DNA from: Acidobacteriota bacterium
GTDB taxonomy: Bacteria > Acidobacteriota > Blastocatellia > RBC074
Reading direction: 5' to 3'
Assembly: GCA_043718445.1 (NCBI GenBank)
Contig: JAYSVR010000216.1
Location: forward strand, 1 to 53,195
Length of the DNA stretch: 53,195 bases
The position numbers were made by a program, and so were the translations under genes. Shown in pieces: positions 48,131-51,201 of the stretch. A model generated the notes under the pieces. It ran no database searches, had not been told where the DNA came from, and worked only from the letters and a program-made list of their open reading frames with translations. Within the stretch, counting starts at the first letter, position 1. Every line of letters begins with the position of its first letter.

Positions 48131-48213
48131 CTTAAATATTTAAGTAGCTCGTATTATGTACACTTCTGAGCTTCAACCAAATTTACTCCGGTAAACATCA
48201 GGAAATTTAATTT

Positions 48214-48301
48214 ATGAAAGCACTCAACATTTCAACCCAAACTGAGCTTTCTCGCCGCAGCTTTTTTGCGCAAAGCCGGTGTCGCGTTCAGCTTGCCGTT
48301 G
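48214..48301 (+). pseudogene. Frameshifted, diverged copy of the first 29 codons of the DUF1552 gene
   Basis: Aligns to 49885-49971 with 69 of 87 identities (manual count) plus one extra T. Reads [29 protein letters not shown] versus [29 protein letters not shown]. Confidence 0.85.
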
Positions 48302-48342
48302 AGCAAGGTTAATCCGGTAAATTAAATATAAGGGAGATTCCC

Positions 48343-49362
48343 ATGCTGCCCCATCTCATCAACTACAGTCCAATTCGCACCCTCATACTTTTGGCCCTCG
48401 TCTGCGGCATGATTGCTATAGGCGTCGTCCAAGCTCAGAAAGCAAAAGGCAGCCGCACTGTCTATCTGCTTACCCGCGACGGCAAGGTGTTGGTGGGTAG
48501 ACTTTCCACAGGCGGCTTCACGGTGAACGAAAGCCCCTCCCGCTCCGTGGGGGTTGAGACAGTGCTTTCGATCAATCTTGGGCAAGAGGCAAGCCCGTAT
48601 GAAGCAGCGCGCATCACCGCCGATCTGGCCGCCGTTCAGGGCACCGACCGGCAGGCGCGTGACGCAGCGGTGGCGGAGTTGACCGACATCGGGCTGCCAG
48701 CATTCACGCCTGTACTCAACGCCTACAAAGATCGTGACCTGCGCGAGCCGGACGCGCTCTATCGCCTCTTCGCTCGCTTGATGCCCGGCTATGCTGACGC
48801 GTCAGATCGCTCGCTTGATCTGATTCGGCTGAAAAATGGCGACGCCTTGCGCGGTAGGCTGGGAATATCATCGCTCACGATTCAGCCGACGGGCGGGGCG
48901 GCGATGAAGGTTTCGCTCGCTGAGCTTCGTTCGCTGGCGATACGGCAGAACGTGATCGAGAAAACTTTTGACGTGCATGCGCTCAGGCACTGCACCCAGA
49001 TCGAATTCCTCGACACCGGCGTCATCATTGGCCCCAACTCGCGCGTCGAAGCGACCGCCGCCGGATATGTGCGCCTCTCCTTCGCCATTGATGGCTGGGC
49101 CGCTGATCCCGATGGAATCAAAGTACCGGGGCCGAATTACAAGACGAATCTGGTGGATGGCTTTCCCTTTGGCGCACTGGTCGGCAAGGTCGGCGTCGCC
49201 GCGCCGCGCTTCATCGTAGGGCGTCGGCTGGACAAAACCGGTTTGGGTGAAGGCCGCCTTTATCTCGCCGTCAACGACAACGGACATTGGCAAAACAACA
49301 TCGGCAGCTTTCGCGTGAAGCTGCGCGTGAGAGATGCTTATGACGTGGGCGATCCGCAGTAG
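48343..49362 (+). CDS. Exported hypothetical protein with C-terminal LecA/PA-IL-like beta-sandwich
   Basis: GGGAG RBS; signal peptide; DTGV......V...A.G, GALVGKVG....F.VG and GRLYLAVND.....N.GSFRV pattern. Confidence 0.6.
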   Translation: MLPHLINYSPIRTLILLALVCGMIAIGVVQAQKAKGSRTVYLLTRDGKVLVGRLSTGGFTVNESPSRSVGVETVLSINLGQEASPYEAARITADLAAVQGTDRQARDAAVAELTDIGLPAFTPVLNAYKDRDLREPDALYRLFARLMPGYADASDRSLDLIRLKNGDALRGRLGISSLTIQPTGGAAMKVSLAELRSLAIRQNVIEKTFDVHALRHCTQIEFLDTGVIIGPNSRVEATAAGYVRLSFAIDGWAADPDGIKVPGPNYKTNLVDGFPFGALVGKVGVAAPRFIVGRRLDKTGLGEGRLYLAVNDNGHWQNNIGSFRVKLRVRDAYDVGDPQ

Positions 49363-49388
49363 GTCAAAGAGCTTCTTGACTAACGCTT

Positions 49389-49613
49389 ATGAGTACGAAA
49401 CAGCAATTTGTCATTTGCATTAAAAACGAAGACTATCCAGCTTCGTTACAGTTATGGAAAGTTTATCGCGTGTTACCTGACGAAAAGGGCGCACGACATA
49501 ACGTGATTCGCGTCGTTGATGAATCGGGCGGAGATTATCTTTTTTCGGCGAGTTACTTCGTTCCGGTGAGGTTACCGTTGGCAGTGAAATCAGCGATTCT
49601 TGCAACGGCGTAG
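49389..49613 (+). CDS. Small conserved hypothetical protein (SH3-like, antitoxin-like)
   Basis: FVICIKN..YPASL...KVY.VL.D......IRVVDESG.DYLF...YF; 74 aa. Confidence 0.7.
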   Translation: MSTKQQFVICIKNEDYPASLQLWKVYRVLPDEKGARHNVIRVVDESGGDYLFSASYFVPVRLPLAVKSAILATA

Positions 49614-49621
49614 AGGTAAAG

Positions 49622-49861
49622 ATGAACAAGATCAAGTTATTTGATGTCGTCGCTTTGACGGAAGACCTGCCGAAATACAAGTTGCGGCGTGGCGAAATCG
49701 GCGCGGTCGTCGAAGTTCATCCAACCGGCAGCTATGAAGTCGAGTTTGTTTCACAAGATGGACACACTTACGCTTTGATCGCAGCCAAGAAAGAGCAACT
49801 CATCGCGCTAAGACAGAAACCACTGCATACGACCCGCAAATTAGTTCCTGCGGCATTGTGA
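49622..49861 (+). CDS. DUF4926 domain protein
   Basis: [14 protein letters not shown]...L.RGEIG.VVEV.....YEVEF....G.TYA; GAGG RBS. Confidence 0.85.
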
Positions 49862-49884
49862 TTAACAGAAAGAGGATTCACCAC

Positions 49885-51201
49885 ATGAAGACCATTCACA
49901 TCTCAACTCAAACCGCCCTCTCTCGCCGCAGCTTCTTGCGCGGAACCGGTGTCGCGCTCGGCTTGCCGTTGCTCGACGCGATGCTGCCTGCGTTTGCGCG
50001 CGCCGACAGCAAAGCCCAAGTGCCGCGCCGCTTCCTGGCGATTTGCAACAACCTCGGCGTGCTGCCGTCGAAGTTTTTTCCGGCGGCGGATTCCAAAGGC
50101 TTCGGCTATCAACTTTCGCCTTACCTCGAAGAATTGCGCGCGCATCGCAATGAATTCACGGTCTTCAGCGGCGTTTGGCATCCTGACGTAGACGCGGGGC
50201 ATCCGGCAGACAATTGCTTTTTGACTGCCGCGCCGCACCCCAGCAGCGGAGGCTTTCGCAATACGATCTCACTCGATCAATTCGCGGCGGAACACATCGG
50301 CAATCAAACGCGCTTTCCTTCGCTCACGCTCGGCGTCAATATTCAGCAAGGTCAGCACAGCCTTTCGTGGACGAGCGGCGGCGTGTTGATTCCGTCAGAA
50401 GAAAAACCTTCCGAAATTTTCAAACGCATGTTCGTCACCGGCACGCCCGCTGAAGTCGAGGCGCAAATGCGCCGTCTGGCGTTGGGGCAAAGCGTGATGG
50501 ATTCGGTCGCCCAACAAACAACTCGGCTGCAAAAAAATATCGGCCCACGCGACCGCGAACGGTTGGATCAATACATGACTGGTGTGCGCGATCTTGAAAA
50601 ACGTTTGGGGCAAGCCGCCGAATGGGAGCAGAAACCCAAACCCGTCGTCAGCGCGCAATGTCCGACAGACACCGCTGCGCCGCGTGATTATTTTGAAAAG
50701 GTGAGATTGATGTATGACCTTGCCGCGCTGGCGTTTGAAACCGACTCGACACGGATCGTCGCGTTGATGCTCGACAGCGTGAATTCGCCCGCGATTACGA
50801 TTGGCGACGAGACAATGGCGGATAGTTATCACGCGATTTCGCATCACGGCAGGAAGCCTGAAAAATTGCGGCAGCACGAAATCGCCGACCGCATGCAAAT
50901 GAAGGCGCTCGATAAACTGTTCACCGATTTGAAAGCGCGCAAAGAAGGCAATGACACGCTGATGGATCGCACGATGGTGTTATACGGCACGAACATGGGT
51001 GACGCGAATACGCATGTGACGACGAACCTGCCGACGTTGTTTGCGGGCGGCGGATTCAAGCACGGACAGCATCTGGGCTTTGACCGCGAACGCAATTACC
51101 CACTGCCGAATCTGTTTGTGAATGTATTGCAACGGTTGGGCATCGAAGCTGATAAGTTTGCGACCAGCACCGGTACGATGCGCGGGCTTGAGGTGGCGTA
51201 A
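49885..51201 (+). CDS. DUF1552 (HXXSHH) domain Tat-exported protein
   Basis: [41 protein letters not shown]...NLP...AGG. ATG 49885 with GAGGA RBS. Confidence 0.92.

Follow-up and report, generated by a model that had tools for sequence, protein, structure and literature searches.

Several bacterial loci hold an intact gene beside strings of its own truncated ends. As described in the parts of the literature available to us, these include the Rhs loci (PMC2935791), the orphan cdiA-CT/cdiI modules of contact-dependent inhibition (CDI) and effector-immunity arrays of the Vibrio cholerae type VI secretion system (T6SS) (PMC5361080). In these arrays the truncated ends vary in length and each is accompanied by the genes once attached to it, the fragments stem from other alleles, no recombinase is present, and new modules enter beside the intact gene while older ones are pushed away. 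Here we analysed a stretch of 53,195 nt from an Acidobacteriota bacterium of the Blastocatellia (contig JAYSVR010000216.1; "the window" hereafter means this whole stretch), in which small gene cassettes lie between a DUF1592-family gene and a DUF1552 gene and enclose a decayed second copy of the DUF1552 start, called the relic below. We consider it likely that the relic is a dead, neutrally decaying 5' end of another DUF1552 allele (type B), left by recombination between Blastocatellia lineages that was homologous on one side and illegitimate on the other, that is, by homology-facilitated illegitimate recombination (HFIR).

HFIR was proposed for the V. cholerae T6SS immunity arrays and for Rhs strings in the available part of one article (PMC5361080). 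In the corresponding parts of two articles it is characterized by one homologous anchor, one joint with little or no homology, a foreign insert and a small loss of recipient DNA (PMC2884548, PMC5361080). The work on HFIR was experimental and was carried out in Acinetobacter, Streptococcus and Pseudomonas, whereas the process at the present locus is inferred from scars alone. For CDI orphan arrays, too, HFIR has been put forward. HFIR in transformable bacteria is reportedly the subject of studies by de Vries and Wackernagel in 2002, Prudhomme et al. in 2002, and Meier and Wackernagel in 2003.

The features of a displacement array were found at this locus and in its relatives: truncated copies of the array-facing gene ends in the same orientation, variable inner edges, and alleles of other lineages. 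The principle that truncated ends are displacement scars is known from polymorphic toxin loci. No polymorphic toxin tip with an immunity gene was found, the flanks being DUF1592 and DUF1552; the array works like the orphan arrays but is not a member of the Rhs, CDI or T6SS toxin families. It differs from them in that the flanks are ordinary partner genes and not toxins, the displaced ends are conserved gene ends and not variable toxin tips, and the scars lie on both sides of one spacer and include displaced starts with start codon and twin-arginine translocation (Tat) signal. Furthermore, the cargo is a mixture of unrelated cassettes, free of integrase and attC, in place of cognate immunity genes, and the host belongs to the phylum Acidobacteriota.

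Two other kinds of system resemble the locus. Like integron arrays and clusters of attC sites lacking integron integrases (CALINs), it has, behind a conserved gene, a variable and dense row of co-oriented small genes, most of them promoterless, with many toxin-antitoxin (TA) genes. Unlike them, it has no intI, no room for attC between several open reading frames (ORFs) and no shared border motif, and its borders are pieces of the flanking genes. As in core-gene-flanked integration and defence hotspots and the minimal mobile elements of Neisseria, different genes occupy one slot between conserved flanks; those hotspots and elements are usually described as clean double-crossover replacements without truncated flank copies, whereas such copies are left here. 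Judged by title, the listed literature that mentions DUF1552 or DUF1592 held no description of this locus, and that on defence and integration hotspots held, by title or abstract start, nothing on Acidobacteria.

Allele identity of the relic start

Positions refer to the window unless a locus (Lnnn) is named, and nucleotides of DUF1552 are counted from its ATG. Relatives were collected by a scan of genome contigs with the DUF1552 protein, which gave 80 loci (L001-L080). L001-L042 hold DUF1552 orthologues (amino-acid identity 79-94%) and come nearly without exception from bins of Blastocatellia or Acidobacteriota, and L043-L080 are more distant DUF1592/DUF1552 pairs (other phyla) or second pairs. 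The scar profiles covered two regions, the initial 150 nt of DUF1552 (38 orthologous genes) and the last 300 nt of DUF1592, and scars were searched in the 38 loci that hold a DUF1552 gene start, including the window.

The DUF1552-start profile detected the relic with an E value of 2.7e-16, and with 2.5e-17 when the whole 53-kb window was scanned; the relic was the sole extra copy of the DUF1552 start in the window. It copies nt 1-87 of the gene (49885-49971); the alignment has one gap, caused by a surplus T in the relic's T-run, and the relic's open frame now stops after 32 codons. The duplicated start reported in an earlier note on this DNA is thus real. For the codon comparison the extra T was first dropped by script; 15 of the 29 codons were identical, 6 differed synonymously and 8 non-synonymously (18 substitutions). 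The six synonymous changes listed in the earlier note do exist, but they do not amount to a strong synonymous bias, since they make up only 6 of 14 changed codons and the eight non-synonymous changes had been omitted. At 12 of the 17 A/T-versus-G/C differences between the copies, A or T stands in the relic. The two copies lie 1671 nt apart in direct orientation, with the relic 1.7 kb upstream, and their longest identical run is 14 nt. This run is too short for RecA-type excision, and excised circles are accordingly not expected in this strain.

Live DUF1552 starts of the orthologous loci fall into two classes. Type A proteins start with MKTI(H/N)IST and have a leader like that of five compact loci described below; the gene of the window belongs to this type. 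Type B proteins start with MKSLNIST, have about 70 nt of conserved upstream sequence and are live in 13-14 loci. The protein start of the relic is MKALNIST. Compared with the working type B genes of L014, L003 and L032, its 21-nt leader differs at 4-5 positions, against 13 for the window's own gene, and its first 36 nt showed 5 differences from L003 but 12 from the own gene. Alignments by blastn to L014, L003 and L032 begin at 48192-48193. Across the 80 loci, the significant blastn matches of the relic were orthologous starts or relic and pseudo-starts alone, with no paralogues, and in L043-L080 and second pairs only chance words of 12-18 nt were matched. By its sequence, the relic is to be regarded as a start that stems from the same DUF1552 gene but from a different allele, type B. 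Given these matches, it is neither a local duplication nor a paralogue fragment.

The start type was then mapped on a tree of the gene body (DUF1552 nt 151-1311, 35 rows), on which it changes 7 times, and at least 5 times when well-supported branches alone are counted. These changes indicate that the 5' end of DUF1552 has been exchanged repeatedly. Several earlier proposals agree with these comparisons. A scar of exchange between lineages is indicated by a type B relic beside a type A resident gene, each copy having been compared with the relatives; divergence of the copies as working genes fits the live type B starts of L003, L032, L014 and others; and replacement of the 5' end recurs on the tree. 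A better match to a different paralogue, which had been named as one outcome that would speak against that account, was not seen among the 80 loci.

The type B upstream segment of about 70 nt is kept whatever precedes it, be it a glyoxalase-like, F9 or TIR gene. It is carried by L003, L005, L006, L008, L009, L013, L014, L018, L020, L021, L025, L032, L033 and L040, and could be a promoter or regulatory leader gained when the gene was separated from DUF1592. We also considered that a cassette-wide leader might be the recombination site. This idea was rejected because the hits of a 70-nt type B upstream profile were confined to genuine type B starts and to relics in L015 and L007; no match was obtained in other cassette leaders or at the window relic. 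Likewise, the sequence just upstream of the relic was considered as a remnant of the DUF1592 stop, but the DUF1592-end profile gave no support, and it is better read as decayed type B upstream sequence.

The joint and its age

Homology to DUF1552 stops at 48301, where the p339 leader known from L002, L006 and L027 takes over; the two sequences have no more than 1-2 nt in common at this joint. L001, which is an independent assembly, carries the same relic at 2839-2914 (profile E 0.0019) with the same break into the p339 leader. This rules out the misassembly that the earlier note had named among the outcomes that would refute it. In L001 the ATG is lost and the decay is heavier than in the window. 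The two relics share 55 matches against 30 mismatches (85 aligned positions) with 5 gaps, whereas fourfold-degenerate sites of neighbouring genes differ by 17-30% between the window and L001. Since the joint is common to both, it is older than the split of the two lineages, and the difference between the relics relative to that at fourfold sites suggests that the fragment has drifted without constraint since.

The surroundings of the joint differ in the two loci. After the joint, L001 has p339 alone, without p74 and DUF4926, which were either gained in the window lineage or lost in L001. Before it, the slot between p349 and the relic contains an ATPase of the OLD/GajA/AriA kind in the window (46255-48213) and a GmrSD-like gene in L001 (895-2757), which encodes 620 aa, has 37-41% GC and is unrelated to the window ATPase. 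After formation of the joint, its left-hand neighbour gene was replaced by another, or else the two lineages filled the slot separately. Between p349 and p339, L002, L027 and L029 hold an HNH gene, a gene with weak similarity to DUF6602 and a 283-aa gene without annotation. The slot from p349 to the relic looks like a small defence-gene turnover slot, and relic starts may mark such slots. For annotation, they should be entered as pseudogene fragments and not as small ORFs.

The 9-mer TCCGGTAAA stands on either side of the relic, a bracket already described in the earlier note. The repeat is present at both places, and a third copy was found at 38717; three copies in the window compare with 0.28 expected, and none of 100 shuffles reached three. 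The match between the flanking copies extends to 15 of 18 nt. The pair is not supported as a recombination footprint, because the 9-mer is not kept in L001 though L001 has the same relic joint. No transposase ORF was found in the 117 nt between the pair, and no terminal inverted repeats around the relic.

Scars in related loci

Both flanking genes are present in 25 loci, counting the window. The distance from the DUF1592 stop to the DUF1552 start is 7-24 nt in five of these (L019, L031, L034, L035 and L042) and 1-7.7 kb in the other 20. The cassettes in the gap lie nearly all on the same strand, and their order varies by genome. They comprise TA cassettes (PIN with a 78-aa partner, DUF433/DUF5615, DUF6883/DUF4926 and BrnT/CopG, with DUF4258 and UPF0175 single), defence-type genes (GmrSD-like, TIR, HNH and the window ATPase), accessory genes (glyoxalase-like, PEMT-like, ODP metallo-hydrolase and xylose-isomerase-like barrel) and an AraC/GyrI-like regulator.

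Seven extra DUF1552-start fragments were detected in six loci (the window, L001, L007, L015 with two, L028 and L032), together with 16 strong extra DUF1592-end fragments in 12 loci. At least one scar was present in 15 of the 38 loci, and every scar was on the + strand. The start fragments run from the ATG, preceded by its leader, to about +56, +66, +88 or +105-115, giving four joints. Three of these are each common to two independent assemblies, the sister joints being shared by L007 and L015 and by L015 and L032. Among the DUF1592-end fragments, the right edge falls at the stop codon (profile position 288-303) in 14 of 16, the other two being internal pieces, while the left edges range from profile position 48 to 255. 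When these fragments were scored against the gene end of their own locus, that end was the best match in 1 of 11. Some younger ones keep 29-71 nt identical to the own gene end (L015, L014, L032 and L013), with 55-71 nt in L015 and L014. Among 32 distant pairs from L043-L080, 17 had gaps of 319-1404 nt, and one of these 17 held a fragment of its own start region. This near-absence suggests that the scars are a feature of the present Blastocatellia group.

A sister event was also found. L003 and L032 show F9 followed by an intact type B gene, and L015 shows F9, a 67-nt type B relic, DUF433/DUF5615 and a type A gene; L036 is donor-like.

No recombinase or transposase was found by Pfam among 34 ORFs of the window, nor an integrase domain among 36 cassette proteins from other loci. 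The sole transposase among the cassette proteins was that of L024, about 6 kb from the gene start. Rfam and tRNA scans of the window gave no tRNA or Rfam element in or near the region.

At L028 (26-961), the leader, ATG and first ~19 codons of DUF1552 form the beginning of the F9 gene, which is xylose-isomerase-like and encodes 311 aa compared with 307-309 elsewhere. The reading frame is kept across the fusion, which lies near a twin-arginine motif present in both proteins; the locus begins at a contig edge. Judging from this arrangement, a cassette gene has captured the start of the flanking gene.

Records titled Heliomicrobium or Heliobacteriaceae (Bacillota), among them L005, L011, L012, L018, L020, L021, L024 and L031, carry the locus at a protein identity of 79-92% to Blastocatellia records and are scattered among these on the tree. 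These bin names look wrong.

Proposed mechanism

In the HFIR reading, which we hold to be probable, type B and type A DUF1552 lineages of Blastocatellia would have recombined. One side would have been resolved by homologous recombination, and the other closed by an illegitimate join that fused nt ~88 of DUF1552 to the p339 leader. In this lineage the DUF1592-DUF1552 spacer has become a hotspot with a packed, mostly co-oriented array of small cassettes. We infer the HFIR mechanism itself. If it is correct, a small gene array inside an operon can be built and reshuffled without obvious mobile-element machinery at the site. Truncated ends would then record single recombination events, and one-sided recombination could be seen as it occurs in nature, in a soil phylum that has received little study and at both 5' and 3' ends of genes.

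The exchange could have had either of two polarities, which give the same product and to which we assign about even odds. In line with the earlier note, by which incoming DNA displaced the resident start, DNA running from p339 to a type A DUF1552 and anchored in the gene body may have displaced a resident type B start. Alternatively, a resident p349-p339 array may have received DNA that was anchored in p349 and ended 88 nt into a type B DUF1552. The incoming tail would have lacked the length and the similarity needed for a second homologous crossover, and the exchange would have brought a gene into the slot that is now the ATPase's. L006, where p349 directly adjoins p339, counts for the latter polarity. 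It is slightly favoured by the shortness of the relic starts and by where the joint lies, ~20 nt past the end of p349 in a recipient like L006. The before and after states of the sister event plausibly fit either polarity.

Several points weigh against the HFIR reading. All relic starts are short (56-115 of 1314 nt), which a random joint in a resident gene would not predict; this shortness fits the polarity with p349 as the anchor, or a size limit, better. No clean breakpoint was seen within DUF1552: in the present locus, L001, L007 and L015 the closest sequence switches at nearly every 150-nt window. The OLD-like ATPase directly before an intact type B DUF1552, an arrangement that the earlier account had led one to look for, was not found, as none of the 80 loci matched the ATPase. 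We know of no demonstration of natural transformation or HFIR in Acidobacteria. The HFIR reading does not account for the excess of the exact TCCGGTAAA pair around the relic, and the 1-2 nt of microhomology at the joint say nothing on the enzymes involved.

A Campbell-type insertion, in which a circle carrying a piece of the DUF1552 start and cassettes would enter by a single homologous crossover and duplicate that piece, seems unlikely to us. Such a circle was used to model the displacement of Rhs C-terminal ends, where, in the available part of the article, it yields the same end structure with variable fragment lengths (Jackson et al. 2009, PMC2935791). The identity kept by some younger DUF1592-end scars would be enough for a homologous crossover, and loop-out at those scars of other loci is possible. 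A single crossover, however, predicts hybrid copies, whereas leader and first 36 nt assign the relic's diagnostic 5' part to type B throughout, and the live gene belongs to type A. With 12 differences in those 36 nt and no identical run beyond 14 nt, little is left for a crossover, and nothing indicates how a first circle could arise. Duplication of the resident start in place, by slippage or unequal crossing-over and followed by drift, would account for the direct orientation and the spacing of the two copies, yet we give it hardly any weight: the differences counted in leader and start favour type B, and the relic's own leader shows no relation to that of the resident gene.

Site-specific integration, whether by an integrase island with att at the gene start, by an integron or CALIN, or by a transposon with a 9-bp target duplication, is very improbable. 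The co-oriented, promoterless and tightly packed cassettes, the TA genes and a Cass2-like domain in family F13 do recall an integron array, and the TCCGGTAAA pair exceeds the chance expectation. Against this, the Pfam-scanned window ORFs include no integrase or transposase, and gaps of 8-26 nt around p339, p74 and DUF4926 leave no room for attC sites, which need about 55 nt or more. Scar edges are spread over four sites in DUF1552 and many in DUF1592, without a fixed crossover core, and a profile search, made without a dedicated attC model, gave no border motif common to the cassettes. A transposon is further opposed by the lack of terminal inverted repeats and by the absence of the pair from L001. 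We see next to no chance that the relic is a fragment of another DUF1552 paralogue of the genome or an assembly chimera, although such genomes hold several DUF1592/DUF1552 pairs (second pairs occur in L014, L046, L058, L065 and L074) and most related records are metagenome bins. The relic found only chance words in distant and second pairs, and the paralogous start in L014 reached the DUF1552-start profile with an E value of only 3e-6. The joint recurs in L001 and the sister joints each in two assemblies; the frameshift and decay speak against a chimera of live strains.

Apart from the origin of the relic, the spacer might be an integron-like gene-capture platform without integrase, its young truncated ends being portable homology arms for cassette circles; we regard this as rather doubtful. 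Promoterless, ORF-sized cassettes would be read from the operon's own promoter and enter at either end beside the intact flanking gene. Arms with the identical stretches found in L015, L014, L032 and L013 would let cassettes loop out and re-enter other genomes. Cassette genes could also take over a gene start with its leader and Tat signal, as the DUF1552-F9 gene of L028 would illustrate.

Cassettes of the window

The coordinates of the features are listed in Table 1. The DUF1592-family gene is the usual upstream partner of DUF1552, and six same-strand ORFs lie between the two, namely p199, p349, the ATPase gene, p339, p74 and DUF4926, with the relic between the ATPase gene and p339. Nucleotide blocks at 44569-45189, 45205-46254, 48323-49363, 49364-49618 and 49609-49859 are separate, and each recurs with other neighbours. 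The stretch 48302-49884 had been proposed to be one unit; it instead comprises three cassettes (p339, p74 and DUF4926) that are found apart and in other orders elsewhere. The gaps after p339, p74 and DUF4926 are 26, 8 and 23 nt. A scan of 44400-50000 gave 6 promoter-like and 6 terminator-like sites, and the means of shuffled sequences were 6.7 and 7.2, respectively.

Table 1 Positions of the flanking genes, cassettes and scar features in the window.
Feature	Position	Strand	Basis or remarks
DUF1592-family gene, left flank	41882..44563	+	Pfam PSD4/PSCyt3/PSD2/PSD3/PSD5 and cytochrome c-like domain
Cassette p199, PD-(D/E)xK nuclease-like	44569..45189 (ORF 44580-45179)	+	PADLOC PD_DExK, E 3.8e-49
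Cassette p349	45205..46254	+	no Pfam family above cut-off
AT-rich block with 598-aa ABC-type ATPase of OLD/GajA/AriA kind	46255..48192 (ORF 46334-48130)	+	Pfam AAA_21, AAA_15
9-mer TCCGGTAAA pair	48187..48195 (left), 48313-48321 (right)	+	repeat search
Relic leader (ribosome-binding region), type B	48193..48213	+	leader comparison, blastn
Relic DUF1552 start	48214..48301	+	ATG and 29 codons including twin-arginine motif; +1 T frameshift
Illegitimate joint, DUF1552 nt ~88 to p339 leader (putative)	48299..48304	+	homology limits
Cassette p339, secreted or membrane protein	48323..49363 (ORF 48343-49362)	+	blastn blocks
Cassette p74	49364..49618 (ORF 49389-49613)	+	blastn blocks start at 49364 in L005, L007, L013, L036
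Cassette DUF4926	49609..49861 (ORF 49622-49861)	+	Pfam DUF4926, E 2.9e-23
DUF1552 gene with 23-nt type A leader, right flank	49862..51201	+	ATG 49885, 438 aa, Tat signal

The DUF1552 gene matched Pfam HXXSHH/DUF1552 (E 1.1e-81), and its orthologues align from residue 1. At the other end of the array, the p199 ORF begins 16 nt past the DUF1592 stop. The p199 block recurs in L014 (6418-7038) with 86% nucleotide identity, and a DUF1592 3'-end fragment follows it there. Blocks of p349 in L001, L002, L006, L027 and L029 have 92-94% nucleotide identity and end no more than ~10 nt from the stop; to their right, these loci have five different neighbours. The ATPase matched AriA (2.8e-23), Old (4.3e-22) and GajA in PADLOC. 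Its block has a GC content of 34-43%, against 54-62% around it, and found no nucleotide or protein match in any of the 80 loci.

Blocks of p339 were found in 9 loci with 77-89% nucleotide identity; eight of the nine end at most 2 nt from the stop codon, and their neighbours differ. The p339 protein belonged to no Pfam or PADLOC family. In Atlas it fell, with very high confidence, among unnamed Acidobacteriota clusters, and a weak lead to PA-IL lectin was given with fairly good confidence. The first ~20 nt of the p74 cassette are the 3' end of the F33 partner ORF, which encodes 79-85 aa and precedes p74 in L005 and L036. This partner of p74, possibly half of a TA pair, is deleted in the window. 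Blocks of DUF4926 occur in L002, L014 and L015, in the last two with the DUF6883 partner gene.

The right end of p349 is alike in six loci, although p349 of the window stops three codons earlier than the others. To its right stand either other genes or DUF1592-end remnants, the latter in three lengths (about 12, 57 and 163 nt); the sites are 46243-46262 in the window, 4380-4400 in L002, 900-965 in L027 and 2725-2893 in L029. The short words GAGTTG and GGC at these joints suggest possible microhomology-mediated deletions.

Outside the array, two long overlapping ORFs on the minus strand (12590-14386 and 14212-15891) both matched PQQ_2/beta-propeller families; they may be one frameshifted gene or an overlapping pair.

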